In this document: one piece after another, positions 1,981 to 31,694 of the stretch
Layout: each line of letters begins with the position of its first letter
Position numbering within the stretch: position 1 is the first letter of the stretch
IMG/VR virus record: IMGVR_UViG_3300020045_007904
Span: 1 to 35,214 of that record
Strand: one strand, 5' to 3'
Source: a virus
Lineage: Duplodnaviria; Caudoviricetes
DNA length: 35,214 bases
Program-made: the position numbers and the translations under genes
The notes under the pieces: generated by a model
Seen by the model: only the letters and a program-made list of their open reading frames with translations
Told to the model about the DNA's origin: nothing
The model's database searches: none

Positions 1981-2024
1981 TGTGGATAACTAGGCTTGCT
2001 TATTTACTGATAATGGTGTATTAT
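1981..2024 (+). promoter_or_regulatory. DnaA box plus sigma70-type promoter, antisense to the late operon
   Basis: TGTGGATAA(1981-1989)-6 nt-TTGCTT-17 nt-TATTAT, then ATG 7 nt later. Confidence 0.65.
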
Positions 2025-2031
2025 AATGGGT

Positions 2032-2118
2032 ATGGTATTATTTTCAGTAATTATTGGTCTTCTGGTCGTTCTTCTGCTCAGGTGGATTTTCAACCGTGGT
2101 CGTCCTCTTGGAAGATGA
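2032..2118 (+). CDS. Putative 28-aa leaderless membrane peptide
   Basis: MVLFSVIIGLLVVLLLRWIFNRGRPLGR: one hydrophobic helix and an Arg-rich tail, directly after a predicted promoter; overlaps the 3' end of 2044..2658 antisense. Confidence 0.45.
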   Translation: MVLFSVIIGLLVVLLLRWIFNRGRPLGR

Positions 2119-2658
2119 ACTCCCTTGTTTAATTAACGAAAGCACTGTTGAAAGTGCTGTATTTCCTCCTTCTTTTTGAGCTACAGCCAAGGGTTCTTTT
2201 GGCTTTTCAGAATAGAACTCTTTCGAATAATCTTGAACTTTACTTGCGTAACTCGGAACATCAAACTTAACACCGTATTTTTTATTTACTCCCGTCGAAG
2301 GTTGTCCGTTCGAAAACTTTCCAGTATAAGCGTCTTTCTCTTTTTCTCCTGCGTTCCACATTGAGGCAATCTGTCTCGAGGTGTAACCTTGATTAACCCA
2401 CTTTTTCACTTTCTCATTTACAACGTATGTCTCATTATCAGCAGTAAGTGGTGAATTTTCATCTCCCATAACTTCTTTCGCATAGAGCTTCCACGTGCTA
2501 GGTGTAAACTGATAAATTGATTTTAACTCACCAGTCTTTCCTTTTCGAGGATTATCAATGTCAGGTTTACCTCCGTTTTCTGCGTAGGCTAGAGCTTTAG
2601 TTATTGCTCGTGATATTTTTTCAGTTTCGTCCATATTAGTCCAAGATTGATTTAGCAA
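2044..2658 (-). CDS. Lytic transglycosylase/lysozyme-fold protein, probably virion-associated
   Basis: Motifs ALAYAENGG (catalytic Glu), IYQFTPSTWK and ASMWNAG; follows the ejection-type gene. Confidence 0.75.
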   Translation of the reverse strand: MLNQSWTNMDETEKISRAITKALAYAENGGKPDIDNPRKGKTGELKSIYQFTPSTWKLYAKEVMGDENSPLTADNETYVVNEKVKKWVNQGYTSRQIASMWNAGEKEKDAYTGKFSNGQPSTGVNKKYGVKFDVPSYASKVQDYSKEFYSEKPKEPLAVAQKEGGNTALSTVLSLIKQGSSSSKRTTTVENPPEQKNDQKTNNY

Positions 2659-4255
2659 ATCCGACTATTGAACCTACACCTCTCTTAGCACCCCCAATTA
2701 AACCTTGAAGAACTGGATTATCGGTATTCAAAGGTGAAGGACTATTTTCTGGAGTGGTGTTTAACGACGTATTCGGAATTGCTGTGCCTCCCTGATATCC
2801 TGTCCCCCCGCCGTATGATTTACTAGCCTGTCCTTGAAGAACTGAGAGCTGATTTACGCCCAAAGTTTTGAGAGATTCAAGGAATGAGGTCAATTGCTGA
2901 GCATTTAATTCTGAAGGGTCAAAGGTGTCATTGATTTCCCCGATTCGAGTAGGATTTATTTCACCTGTTGCCCCAAGAATCTGTGCGGTGTACTTCTTAA
3001 TATCTCCCATTAAGGCGTTTAGGATTTTAATATCAGCAGGATTTTTAAGTTGTCCGATGTACTCGTTTACCGACTTGTTAAAGAATGGATTTTCTTGAGA
3101 ATTAAGCCCTGATTTGTTCAGGAAGTCTATTGCAGTAGGAGTGATAAGGTCTAACTGTTTCAAACCAGTGTCAAGATTTACGGCCTGTTCCTGATAAAGC
3201 TGTCCTTGTTTCATATTCTGAACTGCAATCGAATTCGAAGAGGTCGGATTCCAGTTAGGGTCAAACTGCTTCATTCGTTTGATAAACTCGTTCGCCCCTA
3301 CATCACCTCCTATGATATTAGCCATTGCGTCTTGAGTAGTTGCTCCCTCCTTTATCATATTCACAGCATTATCAATCGAGTTCCCCATTACGGAACTACC
3401 TTCAGTCCCACCATATCGTAGAGCTTCAGGAGTCATCTGTGCTGTTCCTAACAAGCCTTGCTGTTTCTGTTGCTGTGCCTCAAGAAGTTGTCCAGTACCC
3501 TTTAGGGCGGCTTCTTCACCAGCACTTAACGCTGTTTGCTGTGCGGCGGCTGAACGAGCAACATTTCCCGCTAATCCCTGTGCTACAGGAGAAGTAAGTC
3601 CACTTGTAAGATATCCTATTTGAGCTCCTTCTGATTTCTGTCCTACGTCTCGAATAGCACCCCCGTATCGTTCTGCGGTGTCAGCGATACGATTTCCAAT
3701 GTCAGTGTTCCCTCTTGCCGTATCAGCACTTTCAGTAGCGAGTCCTGAATATGTTTCAGGAGGTTTTTGTTTAACAGGTTCGTCAGGTTTCGGAGGAGTA
3801 AAGTTCGGTGTTGTCGAAGCAGTACCTGTGGCGGCTTGTCCTGCTGTCTGTCCTGTCGTCTGATTGACAATCCTATTTGGGTCTGACTGAGCATAACCTG
3901 TTGAAGGTTTCGGAGAGGAGTTAATCATTCCTGAATTACTTCCTGTTTTCTCTGATGTGGTAGTTTTTGAAACTGGCGTAGCGGATTGTTTAGTGTCGTA
4001 TTTCGTAGTTATAACAGTGCCATCAGGGTTCTTGTGGGTTTGAGTCGAAATTGGTGTCGTGGGTGCTTGAGGAGCCACCGATTGAGGAGGCTTTGGAGGT
4101 GTATTGACTGCATTTCTAAAGTCCGTTATTCCCTGTCCTGCTTTATTGAGAGCATTTCCGACTGCTGTTTTAGCGTTTCCAAGACGTCCCATTATTCCTG
4201 AAAATGGATTTCTGTCTTGAGGAGTCGAACCGTTAGTTGTGAAACCTGATGACAT
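2636..4255 (-). CDS. Putative DNA ejection/internal virion protein
   Basis: 539 aa; low-complexity P/T/S N-terminus then A/G/Q-rich helical region; downstream of the nozzle and adaptor, as in podoviruses. Confidence 0.5.
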   Translation of the reverse strand: MSSGFTTNGSTPQDRNPFSGIMGRLGNAKTAVGNALNKAGQGITDFRNAVNTPPKPPQSVAPQAPTTPISTQTHKNPDGTVITTKYDTKQSATPVSKTTTSEKTGSNSGMINSSPKPSTGYAQSDPNRIVNQTTGQTAGQAATGTASTTPNFTPPKPDEPVKQKPPETYSGLATESADTARGNTDIGNRIADTAERYGGAIRDVGQKSEGAQIGYLTSGLTSPVAQGLAGNVARSAAAQQTALSAGEEAALKGTGQLLEAQQQKQQGLLGTAQMTPEALRYGGTEGSSVMGNSIDNAVNMIKEGATTQDAMANIIGGDVGANEFIKRMKQFDPNWNPTSSNSIAVQNMKQGQLYQEQAVNLDTGLKQLDLITPTAIDFLNKSGLNSQENPFFNKSVNEYIGQLKNPADIKILNALMGDIKKYTAQILGATGEINPTRIGEINDTFDPSELNAQQLTSFLESLKTLGVNQLSVLQGQASKSYGGGTGYQGGTAIPNTSLNTTPENSPSPLNTDNPVLQGLIGGAKRGVGSIVGFAKSILD

Positions 4256-4259
4256 ATTA

Positions 4260-5567
4260 TTAACCTATATTCTGCTGATAAAGATTAGGGTTACGACTCA
4301 AACCCTTTGGTGATAAATTGACGTTGATTGTTTTGCTTCCTGCATACTCCGCGAGTTGTTTCAGCTTCTCGTCATACAAACCTTGATATTCATCTTTGCT
4401 TGCTTGGTCGTTACCAAGAGCGGGAGAAGCGAAGTAGAATATCAGAGGTTTCCATATAAGCATGTCCTGAAAGTCTTCCATAAGAAGGGGCATCTGTCCA
4501 AGTGTATACGTTCCTCCTGAAACTGTGATTCCCTGATAAGGCGCAAGTAATGTGAGTGAGGTGGTGCTATCTACGGAGGCTACTTGATACCAAAGATTGT
4601 CTCCTTTTGAAGAACCGACATCAATCTTAATCCAACGGCTTTCACTTTGAGCGTTCGTTGTGAGAATCCAAGATGTTCCTGAACCTGTTACCGTCATTCC
4701 ACCGTTAGAAACGGAAACCGTTCCAGTTGTGTAGTCAGCAAGTGAAAGGTCAGGTACTCGGAACTTGTAGTTGAATGATATTATATTCCCAGTCGTTGAA
4801 GGAATCGGCCACAGATTGAACTTTCCATTGTAGATAAAGAAGTGCGAAGGAATATCTGCGTAGTATGGAAAGACGTTTAATCTATCCCATTCTTCTCGTG
4901 AGAGGATTTCAGTAGGTGTCCATTTCAGAGAACCTATCGTAAGAGTTCCAGTCTTTAACTTTGAATAGTTCGGAGGAAGATTGTACGTTTGAATACCTCC
5001 TTGTCCGATTGAGGTGGTACATACGCTGGTGTTTACATATCCTGTCACCGCTGAGTTAAGTCCACCTGTCCACGTAATAGCCGTAGAACCTGATGTATAA
5101 GTAATCGTTTTCTGTTCTCCGTCGGTGAACTGTGATAGCTTCGAAGCGGTATCATACTCCCACGCTGTCGCCAACGTAGCTGACGTAGCCCCAGACGCAA
5201 GAGAAGCCGTGAGTGCTAGCGAAGTACCAACCAACCCGTTAGACCACGTTATCGCTGTTGAGCTAACTGTGAGAGTTGCAGTACGTTGTTCACCGTCCGA
5301 AAACGTAATTACTGTCTGACATGTTGGAAATGTCCACGCTGAGGAAAGCGTTGCTGATGTATCACCGATTGCTGGTTCGGAGGTTAATGTCAGAGTTGTT
5401 CCTCCAACTGTCGCAATTGTATACGACGCTTCGTTATTGAAATACTTCTGAAGGAGATAGCGATGTTCGATGTTCGCTAATTTTCCAGCTCGAGTCAAGT
5501 TCGCGGAAGTGGTGTTACCCGATAAGTCCCCGTACTGTGTTTGAAGTTCTGTAAAAGAGATACTCAT
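4260..5567 (-). CDS. Head-tail adaptor (tail tubular protein A-like) with inserted beta-rich domains
   Basis: Adaptor-like N-terminal helices, QTYNLPPNYSKL and FNLWPIPS motifs, helical C-terminus; contains a tandemly duplicated insert. Confidence 0.65.
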   Translation of the reverse strand: MSISFTELQTQYGDLSGNTTSANLTRAGKLANIEHRYLLQKYFNNEASYTIATVGGTTLTLTSEPAIGDTSATLSSAWTFPTCQTVITFSDGEQRTATLTVSSTAITWSNGLVGTSLALTASLASGATSATLATAWEYDTASKLSQFTDGEQKTITYTSGSTAITWTGGLNSAVTGYVNTSVCTTSIGQGGIQTYNLPPNYSKLKTGTLTIGSLKWTPTEILSREEWDRLNVFPYYADIPSHFFIYNGKFNLWPIPSTTGNIISFNYKFRVPDLSLADYTTGTVSVSNGGMTVTGSGTSWILTTNAQSESRWIKIDVGSSKGDNLWYQVASVDSTTSLTLLAPYQGITVSGGTYTLGQMPLLMEDFQDMLIWKPLIFYFASPALGNDQASKDEYQGLYDEKLKQLAEYAGSKTINVNLSPKGLSRNPNLYQQNIG

Positions 5568-5568
5568 A

Positions 5569-5937
5569 TTAGAAAACTAGATACTTATAAATTAATCCCG
5601 CACTTTCTGAATCTGAAGATGTAATGGTGAAACTTCCTCCGAGTGGATTCACTACTACCGCCCAATTTCCACTTGACGGAGTCTTTGGTACAGGAATTAT
5701 AAACGACGAAGCGAGTATAGCTCTGGACGTTACCGTGTCAGTATTCCCTGACGTAAGCCAAGTACGAGTAAACACCGCTTTGTATCTTTGTGTGATGTTA
5801 GGAAAAGCAACATTAGGACTATCAGAGCCATTATGCGTGTGGAACGGACTTTGAATAACAGAGAATTGTCGGTCGTATGTGTTTTGTTGAAACACACCCT
5901 GAGCAATTTCCTTTATTTCTTCTTGTGGTGTTTTCAT
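5569..5937 (-). CDS. Small tail-associated protein with C-terminal ITSSDSESAG domain
   Basis: Start re-called at ATG 5937 (ATGA overlap with the upstream stop); PFHTHNGSDS motif; C-terminal domain paralogous to 8700..9038 and 11743..12000. Confidence 0.7.
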   Translation of the reverse strand: MKTPQEEIKEIAQGVFQQNTYDRQFSVIQSPFHTHNGSDSPNVAFPNITQRYKAVFTRTWLTSGNTDTVTSRAILASSFIIPVPKTPSSGNWAVVVNPLGGSFTITSSDSESAGLIYKYLVF

Positions 5938-8090: not shown

Positions 8091-8091
8091 T

Positions 8092-8427
8092 TTATTGTAT
8101 GCCGAAGATTGAGCTAGTAGGTGGGATTGTCATTGTTATCGTCCCTGCAAGATACGACCATTGGACAACTGAGTTGTTATCAAGAGCCTTGTACCATAAC
8201 CCATCACTAACCACGTAAGAAGGTTCTGAAGCAATTGTAAATGACGCATTTATTCCATTCACCGCACCTGTCATCGCGAGTTCCGTCACCCCACCACCAG
8301 TAATTGAGACAAGTAATCGATGTGTCGACGGATTTGCATACACCTTAACTGGTGTCGTTCCATCTGTTGAGGAAGCGGCAATCAAACTTGAAACATCATT
8401 TCCATCTTTTAGTGCTGTGTCTGCCAT
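8092..8427 (-). CDS. Small virion protein: repeated N-terminal domain A plus beta-rich C-terminus
   Basis: MADTALKDGNDVSSLIAASSTDGTTPVKVYANPSTHRLLV is nearly identical to the N-terminus of 8700..9038. Confidence 0.75.
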   Translation of the reverse strand: MADTALKDGNDVSSLIAASSTDGTTPVKVYANPSTHRLLVSITGGGVTELAMTGAVNGINASFTIASEPSYVVSDGLWYKALDNNSVVQWSYLAGTITMTIPPTSSIFGIQ

Positions 8428-12012: not shown

Positions 12013-12492
12013 TTAGCGTATAATAGATTCGTATTTAATTATTTTTGTGTTTTTCTTTGAATTGCATAATCGACACAATGGTTGGATGTTTTCTATGTTA
12101 TCCGAACCGCCCTTTGACAGGGGTATTATGTGGTCTTGAGAAAGTCTAATTTCAGGTTCTCTTTTGCGACAAGACGGACAAGTAAAGTTATACTGAGCTT
12201 TAAGAGTATTCCATTCACCTAACGAGTGCGAACCTCCATTTCCTAACTTCCTTATTTGACGTTGTCTAGCCATAAACGGAGCGTATTCTTTTTTGAGACT
12301 AATTCCTCCTTTCCAAAGCGGATGAGACGAACCTGATTTGAAGGTACTTTCATTTCTACCCTTCGGATTTTTCCTACCAGTAAGAGTATCTCTGATTTTA
12401 TCTTTTGTTTCTTCTGATAGTTTTCTTCCAAAAGCTACCTTACGAAGCTTTTCTACGGTTTCTCTCGAGTGATGAAAACCTTTCTTTCTCAT
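12013..12492 (-). CDS. NUMOD3-HNH homing endonuclease
   Basis: HHSRETVEKL and KLSEETKDKI (NUMOD3); HPLWKGG; CPSC...DHIIPLSKGGSDNIENIQPLCRLCN. Confidence 0.92.
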   Translation of the reverse strand: MRKKGFHHSRETVEKLRKVAFGRKLSEETKDKIRDTLTGRKNPKGRNESTFKSGSSHPLWKGGISLKKEYAPFMARQRQIRKLGNGGSHSLGEWNTLKAQYNFTCPSCRKREPEIRLSQDHIIPLSKGGSDNIENIQPLCRLCNSKKNTKIIKYESIIR

Positions 12493-12537
12493 AACCAAAT
12501 GATACCACTGTCAAAGAACTAACTAAATACTTTCTAA

Positions 12538-17578: not shown

Positions 17579-17782
17579 CTAGAGCAAGCTATCGTTCCCC
17601 CTAGTAGTGTGACTTCTCCAGTCTAAGGAGTGAATGAGTCCTTCACGTGAAAAGTTAAGCTGTACACTTCCTTGTCGAGTATCAAACACTCCCTGCGACA
17701 GTAAGAACGCAAAATTGTCGTAGTTCTGTTGGAACAGAATAAAGAGTGCGGCCTGTTCGTCTGTAAGAGAAAGGTTTGTCAT
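17579..17782 (-). CDS. Small protein, DUF2292/YezD-like
   Basis: Helix followed by GSVQLNFSREGLIHSLD beta-hairpin pattern; weak similarity by eye. Confidence 0.45.
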   Translation of the reverse strand: MTNLSLTDEQAALFILFQQNYDNFAFLLSQGVFDTRQGSVQLNFSREGLIHSLDWRSHTTRGNDSLL

Positions 17783-18321
17783 ACACCCTTGTTCTTATGC
17801 CCACCGTAAGTGCTAGTCTTTTTGTGACATGGTACGCAAAGCGTTCGTCCGTTGTCTATTGCAAAGCGAAGTTCGGGGTAATCGCAAAACGGTTTAATGT
17901 GGTCTGCTTGAACATAACCGTGGAAACCACACCAGATACATGTCCAGTTATCTCTCTTGAATACCGCTTCACGCCATAGTTTGTATTCAAAGTTATGGCG
18001 AAGCTTTTCAATTTCAGAGCTTCGTCCACCTTTCCAATTAAAATGTTTTTCACCTTTCAACGACTCACTTATTTTTTTTCTTGTTTCTAAACTTCGGACT
18101 GCCCCTAGTGCATGACTATTTCCCAACTGTCCTAAGCGCATCTTTTCACGAGTTTCGGGTGAACGTATAATTCCTTTAGGAGAAGGTGGTTTATTTCCGT
18201 TCCTGATATTAGCGTCCCTCAACTTGTTTTTATGCTCAATAGTTAAAGGAGGAAGTTTCCTACCTTTATTTAGATTACCTAATGTATTACCTTTTACAAA
18301 ACCTTTAATACCCTTTGGCAT
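17779..18321 (-). CDS. NUMOD3-HNH homing endonuclease
   Basis: RSPETREKM, RSLETRKKISES, HFNWKGG; WREAVFKRDNWTCIWC...ADHIKPF...NGRTLCVPCH. Confidence 0.92.
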   Translation of the reverse strand: MPKGIKGFVKGNTLGNLNKGRKLPPLTIEHKNKLRDANIRNGNKPPSPKGIIRSPETREKMRLGQLGNSHALGAVRSLETRKKISESLKGEKHFNWKGGRSSEIEKLRHNFEYKLWREAVFKRDNWTCIWCGFHGYVQADHIKPFCDYPELRFAIDNGRTLCVPCHKKTSTYGGHKNKGV

Positions 18322-21264: not shown

Positions 21265-21266
21265 AT

Positions 21267-22781
21267 CTAGAATCTAGCTCCTTTATTTTGTAACATCTCA
21301 TACGCTATCTGGTCTGGAGTTTTCGGAGGTTTTGTTATAACAATACCTGTCGTAAGTACGATACTTGCGAGTGCGATGGCGTTCCTTACGGCATTCTTAA
21401 CTACAACCGCACTGTCAATTATGTCGTCTGAAAATGCAAGTGTCGTGCCAACGAATATTCCCATATTTCTTTCATTCTGGTGTAGAGGTTCTTTAAGAGC
21501 TATCGCCAATATTTCACCCGCCTTAGTGCTTGGCATCGCTTGAGACGCATTTAATAGAGCTACTCCACCTCCTGCTACTACCCCACCCTTTAAAGCCGAC
21601 TGTGAGCTGTTTATAGCGTCTGCACACTTCAACCTTAGATGGCTGAGTTCTGACTCGTTGTTCGCACCTAACTTCAAGATACAGGTCTTGGTCTGAAGCC
21701 AGCTTAAACGTAGCTTGCTGTCAGTTTCGTCATTAGCTTTAAGAGCTTCAAGATGAGATGTAAAATCCTTTGTTCCGAGTACAATCGTTTCGTCTTGTGT
21801 TACGGTGATTTTACCACACGTTCCTAGATGGTCGAGCTTTAATGTTTTAAACGTTATCCCGCTCGAGTCCTCGACAATCGTTGCGCCCGTTACCTTTGCG
21901 AAGTCCTCGAAGACGTATTGTTTCCATAAAACAGGAGCTTTTATGATAAGGATTTTAGCTACCTTTGCTCGATGTGTGGCAATCATTCGTTGTGCGACAC
22001 CCGAGTCCATATCGTCTGTGAAAATGACAAGAGGTCTGCTTGATTCTACACACTGATTGAGTATAGGTTCGATGTCAGAGTCCTTTGTGATTTTGTTCTT
22101 GGTTACGAGGATTATGGGGTTTTCGTAGATTGCTTTTGTTTCGAGGCGACCTTCTTTTTGGGCGACTTCATCGTAGACCAAGTAAGGCGACAAATACCCT
22201 GTACCTTGAAATCTAACCCCTTCAATAACGGAAAATGTTGTCTGATAATTTCCTGAACCTTCTGGGATGATAATTCCGTCCTTTCCAATTTTTTTATATA
22301 TGTCTCCCAAAAGGTTTCCAAGCTCTTTCGATTCTCCAGCAATAGAAGCCACTTTGTACACGTCATCGACGGTGATGTCTTGTTTTTGGTCATCTATGTT
22401 CTTTTCTATTACTGGAATCAAAGCGTCAAGTTCACGCTTTAGTTCCATACCTGATAAACCCGAGGCTAGAGCTTGTTCGAGAATTGATTCAGAAATAATG
22501 AGCGAAGTCTTCCTACCGTCCCCGCTCGTAGCGTCTTGACGGTCTACCAGTTCTTTTAAGTAATCAAGTCCTACCTTTTGAACTTGGTCGGTTACTTGGA
22601 TAGCTTGAATTATCGTTTTGGCGTCATTGGCAGTCTGATTGAATGGATAGAGGTCAACTTGTATGGCCGCATTAACTCCTTTACTACCGTAGGAAAGTCT
22701 AATCGCTTTAGTAGCGTGTTTGATACCGTCCATCATTCCCTGCATAGCTTCCTTGCCTAGAACTACGTTTGATTCAGACAT
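21267..22781 (-). CDS. groEL: Divergent group I chaperonin (GroEL/Cpn60-like)
   Basis: YGSKG, SGDGRKTS, IGKDGII, GYLSPY, ENPIILVT, RPLVIF, KAP, LDHLGTC, GVVAGGGVAL are colinear with GroEL. Confidence 0.95.
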   Translation of the reverse strand: MSESNVVLGKEAMQGMMDGIKHATKAIRLSYGSKGVNAAIQVDLYPFNQTANDAKTIIQAIQVTDQVQKVGLDYLKELVDRQDATSGDGRKTSLIISESILEQALASGLSGMELKRELDALIPVIEKNIDDQKQDITVDDVYKVASIAGESKELGNLLGDIYKKIGKDGIIIPEGSGNYQTTFSVIEGVRFQGTGYLSPYLVYDEVAQKEGRLETKAIYENPIILVTKNKITKDSDIEPILNQCVESSRPLVIFTDDMDSGVAQRMIATHRAKVAKILIIKAPVLWKQYVFEDFAKVTGATIVEDSSGITFKTLKLDHLGTCGKITVTQDETIVLGTKDFTSHLEALKANDETDSKLRLSWLQTKTCILKLGANNESELSHLRLKCADAINSSQSALKGGVVAGGGVALLNASQAMPSTKAGEILAIALKEPLHQNERNMGIFVGTTLAFSDDIIDSAVVVKNAVRNAIALASIVLTTGIVITKPPKTPDQIAYEMLQNKGARF

Positions 22782-23579: not shown

Positions 23580-23782
23580 TTAAGGTCACTTACGTTGATA
23601 GTCTGCTGGGTGTAACGTGTGTCTTGGAGGTAGGCGTCAACCTTAACAGCAAACAACCCGTCCTTAGTGTTCGCCATTGAAACGAAAGCGGCGGGCTGAA
23701 GGTCTAAAGTCTTTAGATAGGAGATAGCTTTTTCCGAGCGTTCGAGAATATCTTTGCGCTGTTCTTCGGAGTAATTTGCCAT
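23576..23782 (-). CDS. Hypothetical protein, first gene of the chaperonin-terminase operon (leaderless)
   Basis: 68 aa; ATG lies 6 nt after the -10. Confidence 0.65.
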   Translation of the reverse strand: MANYSEEQRKDILERSEKAISYLKTLDLQPAAFVSMANTKDGLFAVKVDAYLQDTRYTQQTINVSDLK

Positions 23783-23788: not shown

Positions 23789-23831
23789 ATATTACACGTT
23801 TTCTAATAATAATCAAGTGTTTTTATCCACA
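23789..23831 (-). promoter_or_regulatory. DnaA box plus promoter
   Basis: TGTGGATAA-6 nt-TTGATT-16 nt-TAATAT-6 nt-ATG. Confidence 0.65.
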
Positions 23832-23834
23832 GCC

Positions 23835-24226
23835 TCTAAGAACGTACCATCCTTTTTACCTCATCTCTTAATGGCAGGTAAACAGTGATACTATTGTCTC
23901 TACGCTAGACTCTTAACCTCAATGCTCGGAGTTACTCGTTACCGTTTAACTTGCTGGTACTGACAAGTGTTTTAGCATCAGGAGAGTGTAGGCTTTTAGT
24001 GAAGTGCTTATGAGGCCGAGGGGCGAAAGGATAAAACGCTAGTCCCTCGGTGTTATCAGCACTCCACTCTAGGTGTTAGTTGGTATCTCTCGGATGAAAC
24101 CTATCGCCGAGCCGTAGATGTATGTACAAAAATCACCCACCCGTAGGGCGAGTGAGTGATTTTAATCACCAATCTGCCCTACAGATTAGTATGTATATAC
24201 TACTAGAAACACTAAAATCTTGTCAA
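23835..24226 (-). ncRNA. Promoter-led structured non-coding region with kissing-loop hairpin/terminator pair
   Basis: TTGACA at 24226-24221; hairpin 24168-24190; terminator 24129-24163; long hairpin 23998-24068; no ORF of 60 aa or more. Confidence 0.55.
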
Positions 24227-24234
24227 TACCTTTT

Positions 24235-24507: not shown

Positions 24508-24800
24508 ACCTCAAAAAATCTACCGTGAGTTTTTCGAATAACGACTAAAAGTTGTTCTAGAGTTACATTACGAAGTTTTTTCTTAGATTCCTCTACCGCC
24601 TCCTTTTTCGTTCTTCCTGTTGCCACCGATGCGCCACTTGTTAGTTCAGTTACAACCCACCCCTCTGTAACGTGCTCCAAATTTTCGTTCTCTGCGGGCC
24701 TGTGTATAAAAGTAACGATGTACGGAGAAAGTCTGATTAACTCTCCTTTAACATCCAAACTCCTCCACTTTGTATTTGATGAAACCTTAAAGTTTTTCAT
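24504..24800 (-). CDS. Hypothetical protein
   Basis: 98 aa with WVVTELTSGASVATGRTKKEAVE; ATGA coupling. Confidence 0.65.
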   Translation of the reverse strand: MKNFKVSSNTKWRSLDVKGELIRLSPYIVTFIHRPAENENLEHVTEGWVVTELTSGASVATGRTKKEAVEESKKKLRNVTLEQLLVVIRKTHGRFFEV

Positions 24801-24919
24801 AGTTCATCTTCACCCTTTTAGCCAACGTGTCGATAAAAACTACATACTAGGGAGATACTGAGTATCTTTCCGTTCCTAGTTTCTTGTCGAACAAGTCAGG
24901 GTCAAGGAATGAAGTGTCA

Positions 24920-25154
24920 AGTAGATATTTCGATACGCTTTCAGTAGGTTAGGATTTCGTACAACCCCGCTTTGCAGTAGTTGTTTAGTCACCTAACAGG
25001 TTTTTCATAGATAACTTTACCTTAAAGGTATAGTGCCGTCACACAGCTCTAATGGGCTATCAACCAATGTATCAGTCGGGTAACAAGCGGATTTCCTTGC
25101 TCCCCTAGCGTCTCCCTTTTCCGCCACTACTGAGTGCGTATAAAAATATCTACT
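24920..25154 (-). ncRNA. tRNA-like structured RNA with large inserts
   Basis: Nested stems AGTAGATATTT/AAATATCTACT, ATACGC/GCGTAT and TCAGTAG/CTACTGA; Leu-type D-arm TGGCGGAAAAGGGAGACGC; T-stem-like GTTAGG/CCTAAC with loop ending GAAAT. Confidence 0.6.
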
Positions 25155-25160
25155 CACGAT

Positions 25161-25204
25161 ATCGTATACTATTTCTGCTCAAATTGCAAGCCTAGTTATC
25201 CACA
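25161..25204 (-). promoter_or_regulatory. DnaA box plus promoter driving the tRNA-like RNA
   Basis: TGTGGATAA-6 nt-TTGCAA-17 nt-TACGAT; TGTGGATAACTAGGCTTGC is identical to 1981-1999. Confidence 0.7.
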
Positions 25205-25590
25205 GAAAGGAGTTTCTTATATTCCTCAATAAGTTGAATATAGTGGTCTCGAGCTTTGATTGGTTTCCCTTTTGACGCTGAGCATTCGTTGTAGAGTTTC
25301 TGTTCTGCTTCGTCACCGATTTCTGATTTCATATGTTCACGGAATCGTCCTCCCATACCTCCTAGATTTATATTGCAGTTGTAACACTGGATTCTCAAAA
25401 TCCGTAAGTCGTATTTAAGTAATGCACTCAAAGCTCCTTTCGGGAAGTAGTGACCACATTGTCGATTTGCTCCTTCTAGACGCTCTTGGAAACAGGTATA
25501 ACACTTACTACCGTATCTTTTTATCGTGATGTTTCTACAAAGCTCCCAAAGCTCACGTTCTATAGCCTTCATTGAGCGTTGTTTTTTCAT
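25192..25590 (-). CDS. ninG: NinG/Rap-like recombination endonuclease
   Basis: CYTC...QCGHYF...LKYDLRILRIQCYNCN; start re-called at ATG 25590 (ATGA overlap). Confidence 0.8.
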   Translation of the reverse strand: MKKQRSMKAIERELWELCRNITIKRYGSKCYTCFQERLEGANRQCGHYFPKGALSALLKYDLRILRIQCYNCNINLGGMGGRFREHMKSEIGDEAEQKLYNECSASKGKPIKARDHYIQLIEEYKKLLSVDN

Positions 25591-25961
25591 TCTGCAAGAT
25601 TCATTATTGTCGAATGGTCGCGCTTCAACATCTTTCCTATCTTCGGATATGAGTAGCCTTTTTCTCGTAAGAACTTTACGAGTATTTTCCTTTGAAGGAC
25701 AACGTAGTCGTGACGGTCTTGATAGGATAGTCGTTTGCACTCATTCTCAATTCCTTGTCGCTTTATGTAAGCAGGAGTGTATTTCTTTTCAGTGAGACAC
25801 ATCAGACACTTTTCCTTGTCATACAGAAGTTTTGAGTGTTTTTCACATTCGCCAGTCACGTGAAGATAACCTCGTATTGTGTCGGTGCTTCGAAACATAA
25901 TCTCAGCTATTGCCTTGACTGAGTGTGTCTGTCGGAGTTCTTGAATGTATTTGTAGTCCAT
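25587..25961 (-). CDS. DNA-binding protein with N-terminal HTH, Cys/His linker and DnaA domain-IV-like C-terminal HTH
   Basis: GYSYPKIGKMLKRDHSTIMN resembles the DnaA signature SLPEIGxxFGGRDHTTV; N-terminal SVKAIAEIMFRSTDTIRGYL HTH; CEKH...CLMC. Confidence 0.7.
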   Translation of the reverse strand: MDYKYIQELRQTHSVKAIAEIMFRSTDTIRGYLHVTGECEKHSKLLYDKEKCLMCLTEKKYTPAYIKRQGIENECKRLSYQDRHDYVVLQRKILVKFLREKGYSYPKIGKMLKRDHSTIMNLAE

Positions 25962-26205
25962 TTTTACGTCTTAGAATGTTAGTAAGTGTCGCCCCTTTTG
26001 AGTATTTATCTGGAAGAGTTTCAAGGTCTTTTAAGATACCTATTATCTCGGTATACGAAACCTTTCCTATCATTTTCAACCAGTAACCGAATGAACGAGA
26101 ATCTTCACCTAAGCACTTTTTAATCTCAACTACGGACGCTGATTTCTCGTGCGGTGCTCCTCTTTTTACTTCAAACGTCTTAGTCAAAAGACTGATATGT
26201 TCCAT
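25903..26205 (-). CDS. Hypothetical protein (replication-region position)
   Basis: 100-aa ORF preceded by a DnaA box. Confidence 0.6.
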   Translation of the reverse strand: MEHISLLTKTFEVKRGAPHEKSASVVEIKKCLGEDSRSFGYWLKMIGKVSYTEIIGILKDLETLPDKYSKGATLTNILRRKNGLQIHSRTPTDTLSQGNS

Positions 26206-26233
26206 ACTAGCATAGTTTGTTATCTTTTAACAG

Positions 26234-26247
26234 TGTGGTTATCCACA
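26234..26247. promoter_or_regulatory. DnaA box inside the palindrome TGTGG-TTAT-CCACA
   Basis: TTATCCACA at 26239-26247 in an intergenic gap. Confidence 0.6.
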
Positions 26248-26261
26248 GTTATCTTTCAGAT

Positions 26262-26657
26262 TTAATGAAGAGTTCCTGCTAATCCATTTTCTCTTATAAA
26301 TCGATTAGATTTTGTCTGCATATTTTTTTTCGTCTTTTCCCTAAAATGAAATAACTTATGACAAGAGGAACAAAGAGCGACAAAATCGTTATCGTGTAAA
26401 CCTAAGTAGCGACCATTTTTAGGGTATTTCTTATGGTGAAGATGTATACCATTCAATGAACGACATCTAGCACACTGTTTTCTATGACGTGAGTACCAAT
26501 CTTCTTTTTGTATTTTCCACCAGACACCCTTAATGAAGTCCTTGTACTGGAACTTAATTCTACGTTCTTCTTTTGAGAAACAATTACGATTAGATTTCAT
26601 AAGTATAACTAAGATAGGAAAACTTTGTTTTTTGAGTACAGGAGGGGTAAAAGCCAT
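26262..26657 (-). CDS. HNH endonuclease
   Basis: CARC...IHLHHKKY...VALCSSCHKLFH. Confidence 0.85.
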   Translation of the reverse strand: MAFTPPVLKKQSFPILVILMKSNRNCFSKEERRIKFQYKDFIKGVWWKIQKEDWYSRHRKQCARCRSLNGIHLHHKKYPKNGRYLGLHDNDFVALCSSCHKLFHFREKTKKNMQTKSNRFIRENGLAGTLH

Positions 26658-26927
26658 CTCTTGATGACTTGACTTTAAGAAGCGAAAATCCCGTTTTCTC
26701 TCGGCACTTCTTCTGCTCCGCTATCGCGAAAGGTTCAGTCCGTACGGCTGTCGCGTATGTTCGCCTCCCCAGAGCATTTCAAGCAAGGAGGACGTTGACT
26801 ACTTTGTTTTCCGAGTTAGCTGGTTCCTGCCAGTCACATCAGGTATAAAGTGTCCTACTGTTTAAGGTGGCTTCCAGAGGTGGCTTGCAATAGGTTCGCC
26901 CCGCCATTTCCTCCAGTATTACAACGG

Positions 26928-27082
26928 AAAAACCGACCCCAACTTAATGGGTATCGGTTTGACCTGCACCGTCAAATGCAACGTAAGCACCAAAGGGAAT
27001 ATATGCTCCTTTGATACACACCAAGCATTTTACATTTGACGGTAACATAAAGCAATAGTACACCCCTCACCGTTCTTTGCAA
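26928..27082 (-). ncRNA. Promoter, long-hairpin RNA and terminator
   Basis: TTGCAA-16 nt-TACTAT; 14-bp stem 26968-26981/27030-27043; terminator AAACCGATACCCA-TTAAGT-TGGGGTCGGTTTTT. Confidence 0.55.
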
Positions 27083-27588
27083 GTGGATAATGTGTTGATA
27101 ACTTCTTGAAGTAGTAGTGGCTGGTAATTATAAAGTTCTGGAGCGATATCAATATGATATCCCTCAACAATTTCAACCCCTCCTTCCTCGTGTCTGTGAT
27201 TATTTCCGTGTAGATGTCCGTGAATGTTTAGATTGTAGTCTGCTTTAGGAAGTGGGTAGTGGGAAAACAGTATTTTCTTTCCAAAGTAATGTCCCGAAAA
27301 CTCATCACACACAAAGTCCCAACCGTGTTTTAAGTACCAACTATCGCTCTTGCTGTCGTGGTTCCCTCGTAGAAGAATCTTTTTCATTCCAACTGGAATC
27401 CTAGACATAAAGGCTTTGTGCCAGTCTTCGTCTTTACCGATACACACATCTCCAAGATGAATGATAATGTCCCCTTGAACCTTGCGTAGATTTTCAAGAA
27501 GCAGGTCGGTAAAGTTAGTTGGTCGCCCTGAAAGCTCAACCAACTTATCGTGTCCAAAATGTGTGTCGCTGATAATCCAGATTTTCAT
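27067..27588 (-). CDS. Calcineurin-like metallophosphoesterase
   Basis: SDTHFGH, HLGD, GNHD, SHYP, HGHLH motifs; start re-called at ATG 27588. Confidence 0.93.
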   Translation of the reverse strand: MKIWIISDTHFGHDKLVELSGRPTNFTDLLLENLRKVQGDIIIHLGDVCIGKDEDWHKAFMSRIPVGMKKILLRGNHDSKSDSWYLKHGWDFVCDEFSGHYFGKKILFSHYPLPKADYNLNIHGHLHGNNHRHEEGGVEIVEGYHIDIAPELYNYQPLLLQEVINTLSTCKER

Positions 27589-27589
27589 A

Positions 27590-28291
27590 TTATTTAGTGC
27601 TATTCCATTCCATCTCAAGTTTGCTTTCAAATTTCTTTTTATTGTTTGTCCCTATAACGTCTCGACTTCTATGACACGAGCGACATAGTTCATCGTAGTC
27701 TGAAATATCTCTAGTGTATTCGTGCCCTATTTTCAACGCTCGTTCAGTGTAAGTTTCTTTTTTACATTTGTCGCATATTCCTTTTTTGGGAAAATGACTT
27801 TTAAGATACGAATGTAAATTAACATAACCTACTTTGTCTCCTTTCCAGTTAGGATGTTCCGCCCCTTTAAGCAGACTCGGGGGAATTGCTCTACGCATTT
27901 CCTCTGTCCACGGCTTCCCCTTTTTAGCCCTGCTCATATTTTTACAAGCAGTCAAGGACTTTTTCTTTCCCAATAAAGCTCGTGAGATGTTACGCCTACC
28001 TTCTTCTGACATGGGTTTTACTTTGTAACCGCTCAAACCATCATTCCAAGTTTTACCACCTCTTTTGTAGAACAGTCTTACCGATTTACTCATATTCTTC
28101 CTAGATTCTTCGGTGTGTTTTCTCCCCGTATTTGCAAGAGATATTTTTCTCCTAGTTTCTTCTGAAACAGAATGCCCTAATTTGTCTTTTGACAAAGTAA
28201 CTCCGTAGCACTTCCTTGAACAGTGAATACTATTGTTAGACAGATAACCTAAAAATACTTTTTTACAACTCTTACAGGTTAGTTTTATCAT
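27590..28291 (-). CDS. NUMOD3 homing endonuclease-like protein
   Basis: CKSC...HCSRKC; VSEETRRKISLANTGRKHTEESRKNMS; HPNWKGDKVGY; CDKC...LCRSCH. Confidence 0.85.
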   Translation of the reverse strand: MIKLTCKSCKKVFLGYLSNNSIHCSRKCYGVTLSKDKLGHSVSEETRRKISLANTGRKHTEESRKNMSKSVRLFYKRGGKTWNDGLSGYKVKPMSEEGRRNISRALLGKKKSLTACKNMSRAKKGKPWTEEMRRAIPPSLLKGAEHPNWKGDKVGYVNLHSYLKSHFPKKGICDKCKKETYTERALKIGHEYTRDISDYDELCRSCHRSRDVIGTNNKKKFESKLEMEWNSTK

Positions 28292-28297
28292 TTATCT

Positions 28298-28326
28298 ATT
28301 CTACTAGAGAACCTCTTTAGTATCAA
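28298..28326 (-). promoter_or_regulatory. Leaderless promoter of the endonuclease gene
   Basis: TTGATA-17 nt-TAGAAT-6 nt-ATG. Confidence 0.6.
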
Positions 28327-28685
28327 GTGCGCTGAAACTCTTGTTCGATGAGTCCACGAAATCGCTTCAAGATTTTTATTTGCTCCTCCGCTAAATCGTA
28401 AATCATCTGCAGTTTCTTCCAATCCAGGTACTCCCTAGATGCCCTCGCTATGGCCTCCGCCTTCGTATTAGGCGCACCATTCGCCATTTCCCGTACTATC
28501 ACCTGTCTGTACGCCATTTCACGCTCTAGGAGCGGTGTAATGAGGAACGCCAGAGAGCTTATTAGAGTCTCAACGTCCCCGAACATTCCGTGAAAGTCCC
28601 CTATCTCCGTCTTGTCCTTTGCTTCACGGAGGATAGTGTAGATGGTTCTAGCCTCTTGGTTGATGATGTCTTTGTTGTCGGTCAT
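28323..28685 (-). CDS. Helical hypothetical protein (possible recombination mediator)
   Basis: 120 aa, all-helical, in the recombination module; function is inference only. Confidence 0.6.
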   Translation of the reverse strand: MTDNKDIINQEARTIYTILREAKDKTEIGDFHGMFGDVETLISSLAFLITPLLEREMAYRQVIVREMANGAPNTKAEAIARASREYLDWKKLQMIYDLAEEQIKILKRFRGLIEQEFQRT

Positions 28686-28879
28686 GGTTTTAACATACTA
28701 TAGGTAGTGTGAGTGTGTTTGAAAGGAGTAGGACAACCCTTTTTCGGACACCTCCAGCCTTTCGGTGTAGGTACCGTAATGTGATTAGTTCCGTCATCGC
28801 ACTTCAAATCACCGAAACCTAAATGAAGAATTGCGTCCCAATATTCTGCACCTATATCTTTAGGTTTAATTTTCCTCAT
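28682..28879 (-). CDS. Small Cys/His protein
   Basis: ATGA-coupled start at 28879; CPKKGCPTPFKHTH. Confidence 0.55.
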   Translation of the reverse strand: MRKIKPKDIGAEYWDAILHLGFGDLKCDDGTNHITVPTPKGWRCPKKGCPTPFKHTHTTYSMLKP

Positions 28880-29124
28880 ATAACGAATTTCTTTTGAGTA
28901 GTAAGGTGATTGAGGTAAAACACGAGGTGAGGACAATTTTCTAACGTGAAGATGTTACTACCGTCATTGGTCTGTACTTTAACCTGTTCGTAACACTCCG
29001 CTCGTCCCATATTCACGATGTGTAGTTTGAGCGCACGTTTGAGGAACTTCTTTTTACAGACGGGGCAGATAGGACAGTCGTTCCGCCAAAATTCGTCCTT
29101 GATAGGTTTTACAAATCTTTTCAT
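28876..29124 (-). CDS. Small zinc-finger protein
   Basis: CPVCKKKFLKRALKLH (C2H2-like). Confidence 0.6.
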   Translation of the reverse strand: MKRFVKPIKDEFWRNDCPICPVCKKKFLKRALKLHIVNMGRAECYEQVKVQTNDGSNIFTLENCPHLVFYLNHLTTQKKFVI

Positions 29125-29300
29125 GGCCTAAAACTACTAATAAGACACCACACTTCACTTAGCTTGTATTTCCTTCGCTTGGTTGGGGTGAAATGGGGTA
29201 TTTCCCGTGTTTCTTCACGTCTAGCCCACTCCACCATTGATTCACGGTCTACACGGGCTTGTATCGCCATTTGAACACTCCACGGAGGAAGGTTAGTCAT
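29121..29300 (-). CDS. Hypothetical protein
   Basis: ATG 29300 (MTNLPPWS...), coupled to neighbours. Confidence 0.5.
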   Translation of the reverse strand: MTNLPPWSVQMAIQARVDRESMVEWARREETREIPHFTPTKRRKYKLSEVWCLISSFRP

Positions 29301-29739
29301 TGTGAACGTCTTGAGCGTCTGGCGGTAGGTCAAAGTTCGGAAACTCGGAACCGTCGGATAAACGGTCTAACCTCTTCTGTCCAGTCAGATGTTCTCGGAT
29401 TTCACTTATCGTAAAGTTCAAACGTCCGAGCTTGGTGAGAATTTCAGAATGTTCCTTACGGAGAATCTCAAAGTTTTCTGGTGAAATTCCACCTGCTGAT
29501 TTAGGTTCAGACTTTTGCATTTCAAAGTTGTAATACGTCTTATCGTCCTTGACTACTTCTTCCACCTTGAGTACCTCCACCTCCTGTCCTACGTCCCAAC
29601 TCTTGTTTGAGCTGTTTCCGAATCCCGACAGATATTTATCACCGTATTCTTTAGCCTTGATTGAAAGCGAGGTAAACGGTTTTCCATTTCGTGAAGATGT
29701 TCGTTCAGTACGTTTTACGAATGTGAGATTTAATTTCAT
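29293..29739 (-). CDS. Putative single-stranded DNA-binding (OB-fold) protein
   Basis: Beta-rich N-terminal domain (GKPFTSLSIK...SGF...WDVGQEVEV), acidic C-terminal tail, near the exonuclease. Confidence 0.55.
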   Translation of the reverse strand: MKLNLTFVKRTERTSSRNGKPFTSLSIKAKEYGDKYLSGFGNSSNKSWDVGQEVEVLKVEEVVKDDKTYYNFEMQKSEPKSAGGISPENFEILRKEHSEILTKLGRLNFTISEIREHLTGQKRLDRLSDGSEFPNFDLPPDAQDVHND

Positions 29740-29987
29740 TTTAGTTTTCGGCGCTTAATTTCTCTAATAATACTTTCGTAGTCAAAATAATATTCAACCT
29801 CTTTTCCTTTCAATTCTTCCTCGTAATACCACATATCGTCTATATCCCAACCTCCACCTCCGTGCATAACAGTAATACCATTCTTTGCTTTTTTCTTAAT
29901 AAGTTTCGCTATATTAAGCAAATGGCTATCTTCAAGATTGCGTATCGGGATTTCCGTTCCGTCCTTTGTTGTCCATATTTTACTCAT
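29736..29987 (-). CDS. Hypothetical protein
   Basis: WTTKDGTEIPIRNLEDSHLLNI motif; 83 aa. Confidence 0.7.
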   Translation of the reverse strand: MSKIWTTKDGTEIPIRNLEDSHLLNIAKLIKKKAKNGITVMHGGGGWDIDDMWYYEEELKGKEVEYYFDYESIIREIKRRKLK

Positions 29988-29988
29988 T

Positions 29989-30777
29989 TTATTTCATTGC
30001 TTCTAACTTTTTTAATAATGTGAGTGCGGCCAGAAACGCTTCCTTGTTTCCTGACATATCATAGCTGTACTTCGCTTCGGGCTTTGACGCTCCGAACGGA
30101 AACACAACCACGTAATCGACCTTTGGTATATCAAGAATCTTGTCACCTTCGGGCGTGTGCGCTCCGTTTTCCTCTAACTGCATAGCGTATCCAGTAGCCT
30201 GCCAGAATTGAGTCGGATAGGCTTCCTTTGAGCTTTTAAAGTCTACAACTGCGATTTTCCCGTCTCTGTCCTCAACGACACAGTCCACGATTCCTCCTAA
30301 CCATAGAAACTCGGAGTAACAGTGTGCTTCGGTTAAGAGGATAGTCTTGACATTCTGTTTACACCACTTGGCGAAGATTTCAACTGACGGGTGTTCGTAT
30401 TTTTCCATCTCTCGAGGTTGTCCGTGTTGGTCTTCTATAACGAACTTTGAGTAGTTCTCAAGAGTTTCGTGCATATCCGTCCCTACGACTGCACTATCCT
30501 TTAACTTCACAGAATGCGCCCTGTACGCTTTATCCAGTAACTTCATATAACCCATCACGTTTAGCATTTTAATCGCTGACAGTGCGGTTTCAGCCGTTTG
30601 GCGGCACGTTTCGGGTGGTGTTGTCTTTGGATTTAACCAACCCATAACCTCACAAGCTTTTCCTGAAGCCCACCACGTGAGAGGTTTAGCTAGAACGTCT
30701 CCGACTCGTGACGTGCCGATAAGAGGTTTTCCGTCTAGAGTGTGGACGTGATGTTTAGAATCGAAGTGGTATCTCAT
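29989..30777 (-). CDS. PD-(D/E)xK exonuclease (lambda-exo/RecB-like)
   Basis: GTDMH, E...GGIVD...VVDFKSS...QATGY; start re-called at ATG 30777. Confidence 0.88.
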   Translation of the reverse strand: MRYHFDSKHHVHTLDGKPLIGTSRVGDVLAKPLTWWASGKACEVMGWLNPKTTPPETCRQTAETALSAIKMLNVMGYMKLLDKAYRAHSVKLKDSAVVGTDMHETLENYSKFVIEDQHGQPREMEKYEHPSVEIFAKWCKQNVKTILLTEAHCYSEFLWLGGIVDCVVEDRDGKIAVVDFKSSKEAYPTQFWQATGYAMQLEENGAHTPEGDKILDIPKVDYVVVFPFGASKPEAKYSYDMSGNKEAFLAALTLLKKLEAMK

Positions 30778-31259
30778 TATCTTTTGACTAGAATTAACTC
30801 TATTTCTTTTCCAAGTTTCTTGGACTTTACAGATTGGATTTTGAATCCTACTGTGTTCGCCCATAAGATAATAAGAGCTTTGGTAAACAACTGATAGTGA
30901 AGTCCTCGTTCCTTTTTCCACGGAGTAGACATCCACCAGTTCCAGAACCTCATAACGTCCATACATAATCCGATAATCCTGAATGGAAAGTACGAACCAC
31001 TAGGGACGACAAGTCGCATTGTTCCGTAATAATCTAAACATCTGTAACACTCCTTCAAGACGTAATATGCGTTAGGAAAATGTTCAAGGCTATTATCGCT
31101 GTTTATGAAGTCGAGCTGTTCGTCTTTAAAGGGTAATCCTTCGTTACAATCGTGAACCAAATCAGGGTTATACTTTTTTGAGATGTCTATTCCGTAGCAG
31201 TCTTTGTACTTTTGTTCAGGACTACCGCAACCTATGTCAATTTTTGTTATTAATGGCAT
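30777..31259 (-). CDS. Class I SAM-dependent methyltransferase
   Basis: KIDIGCGS, GIDI, LPFKDEQLDFI, SLEHF, ECYRCL..YG motifs. Confidence 0.88.
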   Translation of the reverse strand: MPLITKIDIGCGSPEQKYKDCYGIDISKKYNPDLVHDCNEGLPFKDEQLDFINSDNSLEHFPNAYYVLKECYRCLDYYGTMRLVVPSGSYFPFRIIGLCMDVMRFWNWWMSTPWKKERGLHYQLFTKALIILWANTVGFKIQSVKSKKLGKEIELILVKR

Positions 31260-31422
31260 ATTCTTTTCTTAGAGTGTCTAATCTTCGTTCTATCGACCCT
31301 AGTTCTTCAATTGCTCGTTCTATGTTACCTACTTCAAACTCAAACTTTTGATATTCTTCTTCGGGAACTTGATAGTATATCGAGCAGTGAATGGTTTTAA
31401 CTTCAAAAGGGTTAGAATCCAT
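31237..31422 (-). CDS. Hypothetical protein
   Basis: 61 aa, overlapping neighbours. Confidence 0.55.
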   Translation of the reverse strand: MDSNPFEVKTIHCSIYYQVPEEEYQKFEFEVGNIERAIEELGSIERRLDTLRKEYAINNKN

Positions 31423-31624
31423 ATTGGCAATTAGCTGGTAAATATACTTTCTTAGTCTCGAAACAACCGTCCTCGCTCGGGTGTCCTAACTCCTCAAAAG
31501 AAAATACAAACGCACCTTTTTCGTCCTCTAACACGTCCTCTCGTGTTGCACCGATATCAGATAGAAACTGTTCTCGGTTTTCTTGAACTGTTTCTTGAAA
31601 TAGTTCGTTAATCTTGTTTGACAT
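31412..31624 (-). CDS. Acidic hypothetical protein, first gene of the presumed early operon
   Basis: Start re-called at ATG 31624 (MSNKINELFQE), downstream of a promoter. Confidence 0.6.
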   Translation of the reverse strand: MSNKINELFQETVQENREQFLSDIGATREDVLEDEKGAFVFSFEELGHPSEDGCFETKKVYLPANCQYGF

Positions 31625-31650
31625 AATAATTGTTAGTGAATAATGAATGG

Positions 31651-31694
31651 ATAATAAACCCATTCGTATTTGAATGCAAGGATAGTTATCCACA
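31651..31694 (-). promoter_or_regulatory. DnaA box plus promoter of the recombination operon
   Basis: TGTGGATAA-6 nt-TTGCAT-17 nt-TATTAT. Confidence 0.7.

Follow-up and report, generated by a model that had tools for sequence, protein, structure and literature searches.

The stretch of DNA analysed here (the window) is the whole of IMG/VR virus record IMGVR_UViG_3300020045_007904, a complete circular phage genome (Duplodnaviria; Caudoviricetes) of 35,214 nucleotides (nt), present as a single contig with a 121-nt terminal repeat. The recognised genes include those for terminase, portal, major head protein, GroEL/GroES, an exonuclease, a NinG-like protein and HNH proteins, essentially all on the minus strand. 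The genome carries five perfect copies of the DnaA box TTATCCACA, four of which stand at a fixed distance from a predicted sigma-70-type promoter. The genome also encodes a protein of 124 amino acids (aa) whose C-terminal half is of the DnaA domain IV type. The features that concern us most are the following:

1981..2024, plus strand: predicted promoter; box 1981-1989, 6 nt, -35 TTGCTT 1996-2001, 17 nt, -10 TATTAT 2019-2024
23789..23831, minus strand: predicted promoter; box 23823-23831, 6 nt, -35 TTGATT 23811-23816, 16 nt, -10 TAATAT 23789-23794
25161..25204, minus strand: predicted promoter of a tRNA-like RNA; box 25196-25204, 6 nt, -35 TTGCAA 25184-25189, 17 nt, -10 TACGAT 25161-25166
25587..25961, minus strand: 124-aa protein; helix-turn-helix (HTH) at residues ~3-33, CxxH...CxxC motif at 39-55, DnaA domain IV-type region at ~63-124
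26204..26247, minus strand: putative weak promoter or operator; box 26239-26247 inside a 5-bp inverted repeat, with 6-nt and 17-nt spacing
27055..27101, minus strand: two boxes matching at 8/9 positions, in opposite orientation, 27093-27101 and 27082-27090; -35 TTGCAA 27077-27082, 16 nt, -10 TACTAT 27055-27060
31651..31694, minus strand: predicted promoter; box 31686-31694, 6 nt, -35 TTGCAT 31674-31679, 17 nt, -10 TATTAT 31651-31656

The perfect boxes are at 1981, 23823, 25196, 26239 and 31686, in agreement with a preliminary description of this DNA, which had counted at least five. Against a shuffled null, 0.25 would be expected, and five were reached in 0 of 100 shuffles; Markov models of orders 2-4 predict 0.29-0.46. 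Allowing one mismatch gave 14 matches versus 7.9 expected, a count reached in 6 of 100 shuffles, and it is therefore the perfect boxes alone that stand clear of chance. Each of them falls either between genes or within a gene's final codons, as the claim of a gene-boundary location requires. The boxes at 1981, 23823, 25196 and 31686 have a common layout, also anticipated in the preliminary description: TGTGGATAA is followed by exactly 6 nt, a TTGnnn hexamer, 16-17 nt and TAnnnT. The promoters are sequence-rule predictions (TTG hexamer, 16-17 nt, TAnnnT), and such a rule promoter at exactly +6 is found for 4/5 boxes, compared with 0.14% of 5000 random positions. Sites 1981 and 25196 have 19 identical bases in common, again as described. 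The perfect boxes are single, 1-22 kb apart and spread over 30 kb. An oriC-like cluster is absent among them, with no search aimed at unwinding elements having been made, and a reading as a replication origin was rejected because the boxes are scattered.

The four predicted promoters head the units previously assigned to them. The promoter at 31651..31694 precedes an early run with a methyltransferase and a PD-(D/E)XK exonuclease (ATG at 31624), while that at 25161..25204 precedes the tRNA-like RNA, its box lying within the last codons of the NinG-like gene. The GroES-GroEL-terminase-structural gene run follows the promoter at 23789..23831, which is probably leaderless, since an ATG is found at 23782, 6 nt past the -10. 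The promoter at 1981..2024 is directed against the main gene strand, towards an antisense peptide; its box also lies 4 nt ahead of the start codon of open reading frame (ORF) 774-1976 on the minus strand. The fifth perfect box, which lies two genes upstream of the 124-aa ORF, is followed at +6 by TGTTAA, a hexamer that agrees with the consensus at 2/6 positions, and its -10-like hexamer runs into the start codon at 26205; this site would at best be a weak promoter or an operator. Finally, the 8/9 box at 27082, which overlaps its -35 by one base, is present as reported, but a second 8/9 box at 27093 had been overlooked. The predicted promoter at this site heads a structured non-coding stretch of ~390 nt and the genes that extend as far as the 124-aa ORF.

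To place the boxes in a wider context, we compared 19 capsid-related phage records (hereafter kin), 10 of which are at least 90% complete. These contain 33 boxes versus 5 for a reversed control, with at least one box in 16/19 records. A second count covered 18 records (598,599 nt), with G018 left out as a near-copy of G006 and G014 and G015 taken to 20,000 nt only, and gave 32 boxes versus 5.9-6.2 expected. With the +6 offset fixed beforehand from the present genome, TTG was found at +6 in 7 of these 32 boxes (background 0.020, P 3e-6). A rule promoter lies within 20 nt on either side of 15/32 boxes, compared with 3.6% of random positions, a lenient control in that most random positions are coding. 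Among unrelated phages (159 loci, 2.14 Mb), the count was 17 boxes versus 17 for the control, or 0.008 boxes per kb, and box-N5-7-TTG occurred in none. The shuffles, the spacing and the kin counts together indicate that the boxes are non-random, linked to predicted promoters and conserved in kin. The spacing itself carries over in part: the TTG at +6 recurs, but a second geometry, in which the box is reversed and stands 8-12 nt ahead of the -35, often with a near-consensus promoter, is commoner in kin than the N6 layout. This second geometry was seen in G004, G010, G011, G012, G013 and G027. We also observed tandem boxes 12 or 21 nt apart that end in a box-N6-TTG promoter, in G001 (27286/27298), G028 (28374-28407), G029 (24589-24700) and G030 (860-1482).

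The corresponding test on the host side drew on metagenome contigs rather than on complete Patescibacteria genomes. The pattern used (box, 2-14 nt, -35, 16-18 nt, -10) is estimated to occur in ~5700 stretches, of which 118 loci were kept. These provided 110 distinct sites, 49 of them with a spacing of 5-7 nt versus 25 if the distribution were flat. Housekeeping genes, including those for tRNA ligases, MreB, a release factor, Der, MurB and Ddl, are present on at least 14 of the 33 longer loci scanned. An organism was named for 6 of 17 loci that were looked up, hand-picked from the 118, and five of the six are Patescibacteria: Nomurabacteria (spacing 6), Portnoybacteria (7), Gribaldobacteria (5), Moranbacteria (10) and Paceibacterota (5, assigned via cluster members). 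Judged from these contigs, the box layout appears to be a cellular promoter module, mainly, not exclusively, of Parcubacteria. The preliminary description had conceded that a generic host element of the same geometry would lessen its novelty. The same box-to--35 geometry does occur on host-type chromosomal contigs, and the circuit is not private to the phage. Some of the metagenome box promoters are located at LexA or S24-peptidase genes (L211, L254, L268 and L208), one of them beside a umuC-type gene, hinting at a possible link of DnaA to the SOS response.

Further clues to the host come from the capsid, which belongs to a large family (1248 clusters at E 1e-50; 35 viral loci). Two full-length matches were found among annotated phages, at 27% identity: a spring-water phage and the TM7 phage DolZOral124_53_65, the host of which is a Saccharibacterium. 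Both also have portal and GroEL in common with the phage studied here, and GroEL was found in 19/19 kin records (three as partial matches). An Atlas look-up of ORF 774-1976 provided no host clue. Taken with the box promoters on cellular contigs, the relationship to the TM7 phage suggests that the host is quite probably a Patescibacterium, and it may belong to the Parcubacteria.

The 124-aa protein had been described as DnaA domain IV-like on the basis of a recognition-helix motif near its C-terminus. The motif is present and is followed by MNLAE to the stop codon. Neither AAA+ domain III nor domain I was found in the protein, Bac_DnaA was unmatched, and HTH_38 outscores Bac_DnaA_C. Its predicted structure is of high confidence (pLDDT, predicted local distance difference test, 95.7; pTM, predicted template modelling score, 0.79). 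Over residues 69-124, the structural alignment to DnaA domain IV has Z 5.8 for 3PVP and 5.3 for 1J1V, with a root-mean-square deviation of 2.5-2.7 over 56 residues. Foldseek matched the model to 3PVP with probability 1.0 but E 0.37; a PDB search with the single sequence did not find DnaA, while the C-terminal half alone ranked 3PVP first at E 0.38.

Close relatives were absent from a first protein search, which retrieved the query only, whereas a full HMMER scan identified 96 proteins at E 0.001. We aligned the query with the 52 homologues of 124-158 aa whose match reaches the middle or N-terminal part. In this family (n=53; at least 53 clusters at 50% identity), Bac_DnaA_C is matched at E 0.01 in 45/53 and Sigma70_r4 (PF04545) in 43/53, an E-R-V/I-R-Q helix is found in 42/53 and the CxxH...CxxC motif in 43/53. 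The C-terminal half of the family profile matches domain IV of M. tuberculosis DnaA (3PVP) at E 1.6e-5, and in the N-terminal part the E-R-V-R-Q-I helix lines up with the helix by which primary sigma factors read the -35; the top match of the profile is a designed helix-turn-helix repeat protein. The earlier assignment therefore stands as far as a DnaA domain IV-type fold is concerned, but there is more to the protein than domain IV, for its family adds an N-terminal HTH of the sigma-70 region 4.2 type and the CxxH...CxxC motif. The family thus appears, from its profile matches, to unite a domain of the type that reads a -35 with one of the type that reads a DnaA box.

The pattern of conservation is instructive in both halves. 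Using the profile-alignment offset for E. coli RpoD, the equivalents of sigma-70 E585, R588 and Q589 are kept in 46, 47 and 47 of the 52 homologues, while R584 is Arg in 6/52. PMC2613000 assigns base -33 to E585 and R588 and base -31 to R584. This conservation fits -35 hexamers that keep TTG and vary after it. The 124-aa protein itself has Asp, Arg and Gly at the E585, R588 and Q589 places and does not match Sigma70_r4, which is why we regard its HTH as an eroded sigma-70 region 4.2. In domain IV, the basic-loop Arg is present in 51/52 homologues, and the recognition helix has Asp in 39 and His in 41 of 52; the His is replaced in 11/52, and Thr or Ser occupies the following two places. The 124-aa protein keeps Arg83, Asp115 and His116, with Ser117 in place of E. 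coli Thr435 and Asn121 in place of His439. Arg83 presumably corresponds to E. coli Arg399, a mapping that goes by way of the aligned Lys of 3PVP. Arg399, Asp433, His434 and Thr435 are given as the base readers of E. coli DnaA in a section of an in-silico paper that quotes E. coli work (PMC13451751). Stand-alone Bac_DnaA_C proteins are common in phages, with Pelagibacter phage HTVC010P among the matches, and sigma-4-like helices of the family type are also found by themselves in small proteins from phages without boxes.

The proposal that boxes and protein form a dedicated pair is not supported. While 16/19 kin have boxes, a full-length family member was found in 0/19, with one weak partial match in G002, and the pairing would thus not be obligate. 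Three genomic contexts of the family are known, too few for a test: the present genome, L258 and G026. In all three a box beside a -35 is located upstream of the gene. L258 was found by the promoter pattern alone and contains a full family member; it has two box-N7-TTGACT promoters, and the family gene is part of an exonuclease operon behind one of them. In G026, the family gene lies behind an inverted 8/9 box that abuts TTGACA, the same geometry as at site 27082. Three degenerate DNA patterns for the family retrieved 160 loci with one true member (L398), and a single-protein search provided no family contexts.

Other features of the genome relate to the predicted promoters or to the ends of the record:

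1-121 and 35094-35214: terminal repeat, 121 nt
2-763 and 34630-35214: end ORFs, forming a single gene that spans the circular junction
2026..2118, plus strand: hydrophobic peptide ORF, 30 aa; antisense, overlapping the SLT-like gene 2044-2658 (minus strand) at its 3' end
24940..25133, minus strand: tRNA-like RNA, 194 nt; acceptor, D and T arms; anticodon region and T loop both carry long insertions

The peptide ORF at 2026-2118 is the sole plus-strand gene found. It has a second ATG at 2032, 7 nt past the -10, so a leaderless form of 28 aa is possible. At 28-30 aa, hydrophobic, with a basic tail and its own box promoter, the peptide could be an exclusion or toxin-type membrane peptide. The tRNA-like RNA folds better than 200/200 shuffles. 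Neither ARAGORN nor Rfam called a canonical tRNA at 25133-24940, and relaxed ARAGORN settings gave only noise. It belongs to a class of RNAs that is widespread in phages and combines D and T arms with a variable middle, estimated at ~270 viral stretches, most of them 100-210 nt long. The pair of long inserts, one in the anticodon region and one in the T loop, was also seen in G010 (~22075-22250), L477, L489, L418 and L414, and a T-loop insert starting with GACTA is common to a few members. A general link between boxes and such RNAs was rejected, as a box was found at most 120 nt upstream in 0/120 related RNAs. Two non-coding stretches on the minus strand are structured: 23840-24190 (351 nt, z -4.2), just upstream of the late promoter, and 26660-27045 (386 nt, z -2.6), behind the 27082 promoter; no homologues of either were found in the kin records. 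The GroEL and GroES genes of this 35-kb phage occupy 21270-23391 (minus strand). Four genes are of the HNH or NUMOD3 homing-nuclease type (12013-12498, 17779-18321, 26262-26657 and 27590-28291), and two of these are placed between packaging and head genes.

The presence of boxes in kin that lack the protein, and of the same layout on cellular contigs, makes host DnaA the likely reader. We give about an even chance to the proposal that host DnaA aids transcription at the phage box promoters, which share their layout with Patescibacteria chromosomes, and that the 124-aa protein, an optional accessory, competes for the boxes and damps these promoters. Host DnaA would bind the box at about -50 to -42, adjoining but not covering the -35, and would help RNA polymerase start at promoters with off-consensus -35 and -10 hexamers. 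Early, RNA and late expression would thereby be tied to the DnaA state of the host. The 124-aa protein, having neither the ATPase nor the N-terminal domains of DnaA, would occupy boxes without activating, and the promoters it damps would include its own. In intact family members, the sigma-4.2 helix may add grip on the adjacent TTG; judging by 1J1V, the orientation of the box would turn the basic loop, and with it the protein's N-terminal side, to face the -35, in keeping with such a grip. With its own sigma helix eroded, the 124-aa protein likely acts mainly through domain IV. We infer from the DNA that the predicted promoters fire, that DnaA reads the boxes and that activation is the effect. 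A stronger version, in which Patescibacteria place many of their promoters under DnaA by means of the fixed module and the fusion of sigma region 4.2 and domain IV is a phage-built antagonist that silences the host DnaA regulon, times the phage promoters and perhaps blocks oriC, is in our view unlikely. The domain order of the family, with sigma-4 first and domain IV after it, does parallel the order of -35 and upstream box on the DNA.

Several observations weigh against host DnaA acting at a fixed box-to--35 distance in a patescibacterial host, or against the identity of the protein. A full rule promoter at +5 or +6 is found for only 4/32 kin boxes, and 11 kin promoter matches lie on the other side of the box, mostly 8-12 nt off, so that a second geometry exists and the N6 layout is not unique. 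When all viral contigs were scanned for a box and TTGACA with the spacing left free, 119 sites emerged; their spacing peaks at 5 nt (19 sites) and 14 nt (20), with 12 sites at 6, which means that the 6-nt spacing is not general to viruses. None of the three boxes of TM7 phage DolZOral124_53_65 has such a promoter, and G026 contains a family gene, yet 0/2 of its perfect boxes have an N5-7 promoter. Among the hand-picked cellular loci, one of the six named belongs to Gastranaerophilales (spacing 5), and the layout therefore extends beyond Patescibacteria. A close capsid gene (86%) occurs in a single species genome, which measures 4.6 Mb and has 97 boxes versus 87 for the control, and the sole organism name among the 120 capsid matches listed is a Spirochaetia metagenome-assembled genome. 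Both capsid genes probably sit on mis-binned phage contigs, and the 4.6-Mb genome, lacking a box excess, was rejected as a likely host. As to the 124-aa protein, its match to Bac_DnaA_C (E 3.4e-7, 30.6 bits) is below the Pfam cut-off of 31.5 bits. KorB (Z 7.8) and Spo0J (Z 7.2) superpose on it better than DnaA (5.8), and structure alone does not single out DnaA.

Other readings assign the boxes or the protein a different role. The phage protein might be a dedicated two-headed reader of box and -35, running a phage regulon and also shutting such promoters in the host. Its family fuses exactly the -35-reading and box-reading domains, and the residues it keeps (E585, R588 and Q589 equivalents, not R584) would suit -35s that hold TTG and vary beyond it; in all three contexts, moreover, the gene is preceded by a box next to a -35. 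We nevertheless think this rather unlikely, because the boxes persist in kin that lack the full-length gene, and also on host contigs, the geometry differs among the three contexts (N6, N7, inverted and abutting), the 124-aa copy has lost the E, R and Q of its sigma helix along with any Sigma70_r4 match, and similar helices occur alone in box-free phages. It is similarly doubtful that host DnaA represses these promoters, or that the boxes titrate DnaA or aid phage replication, rather than serving activation. According to the part of PMC8203912 we draw on, DnaA-ATP represses nrdAB and dnaA from promoter boxes. The boxes that overlap a -35 (27082; G026) resemble repressor sites, tandem boxes 12 or 21 nt apart exist in other phages, and none of the 34 proteins scanned was recognised as a replicative helicase or polymerase; these observations would suit such a role. 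Yet the perfect boxes are single and extend over 30 kb, unlike the clustered boxes of origins, and a fixed gap that leaves the -35 free would suit polymerase contact more than occlusion.

Two further readings seem much less probable. In one, the 9-mer is read not by DnaA but by a different host factor, or by the polymerase, for which it would be this lineage's upstream promoter element. A preference for C directly after the box (16/32 in kin, 67/159 in metagenome loci) hints at a slightly longer site, but the full DnaA consensus is matched, including the ninth base, which is A after TTATCCAC in 32/41 kin cases. The reader known for this sequence is DnaA domain IV, and we regard a non-DnaA reader as improbable. 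More improbable still, the boxes could be host-DnaA sites while the phage ORF encodes an unrelated HTH regulator whose specificity has drifted from the box. The sub-threshold Pfam score, the varying recognition-helix residues and the frequency of stand-alone Bac_DnaA_C proteins in phages would all accommodate drift; the near-invariant basic-loop Arg speaks against it, as do boxes in 3/3 contexts against their scarcity in unrelated phages. We therefore prefer host DnaA as the reader of the boxes, with the 124-aa protein as an optional competitor.

That DnaA is a transcription factor and that lambda makes use of it are already known. In phage lambda, a DnaA box is located downstream of pR. The section of PMC8203912 that we rely on states that transcription in lambda is likewise stimulated by host DnaA; there it is replication-linked transcription, whereas here the element is found at early, RNA, late and antisense units alike, and a domain IV protein is encoded by the phage itself. 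The same section reports that DnaA activates or represses from promoter boxes, depending on level and nucleotide, and that it can activate at nrdAB. The DnaA-regulated promoters it describes (nrdAB, dnaA and uvrB in E. coli; gcrA, ftsZ and podJ in C. crescentus) likewise have the consensus box in the promoter region, but a fixed spacing or a Patescibacteria case is not among them. By comparison, one box-to--35 spacing is found at four promoters of the present phage and recurs in uncultured Patescibacteria. The available text of PMC4736985 mentions DnaA-box-like repeats solely at a Peribacteria origin. Among the papers listed in a literature search that reached few subscription journals and no supplements, none dealt with DnaA-box promoters in Patescibacteria or their phages, or with a fusion of sigma-4 and domain IV.

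The new element is the family that combines sigma-4, the Cys/His motif and domain IV, which is apparently undescribed. Like DnaA domain IV (3PVP, 1J1V; PF08299), it keeps the D-H-S/T-T helix start and the basic-loop residue, but it differs from DnaA and from stand-alone Bac_DnaA_C proteins in having no AAA+ domain or domain I and in its additional N-terminal HTH and Cys/His motif. Compared with sigma-70 region 4.2 (PF04545; SigA/RpoD), the family has the HTH alone, and without regions 2-3 it cannot start transcription.

To our knowledge, next to nothing has been established on how Patescibacteria regulate their transcription. That they and their phages have a fixed DnaA-box promoter module in common suggests a second, broad regulatory role for the replication initiator, through which phages would sense the replication state of the host. 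Because the module consists of standard sigma-70 and DnaA sequences, it is testable in E. coli. The fusion family, in turn, provides a concrete candidate for a phage DnaA antagonist that would act on the DNA, not on the DnaA protein.

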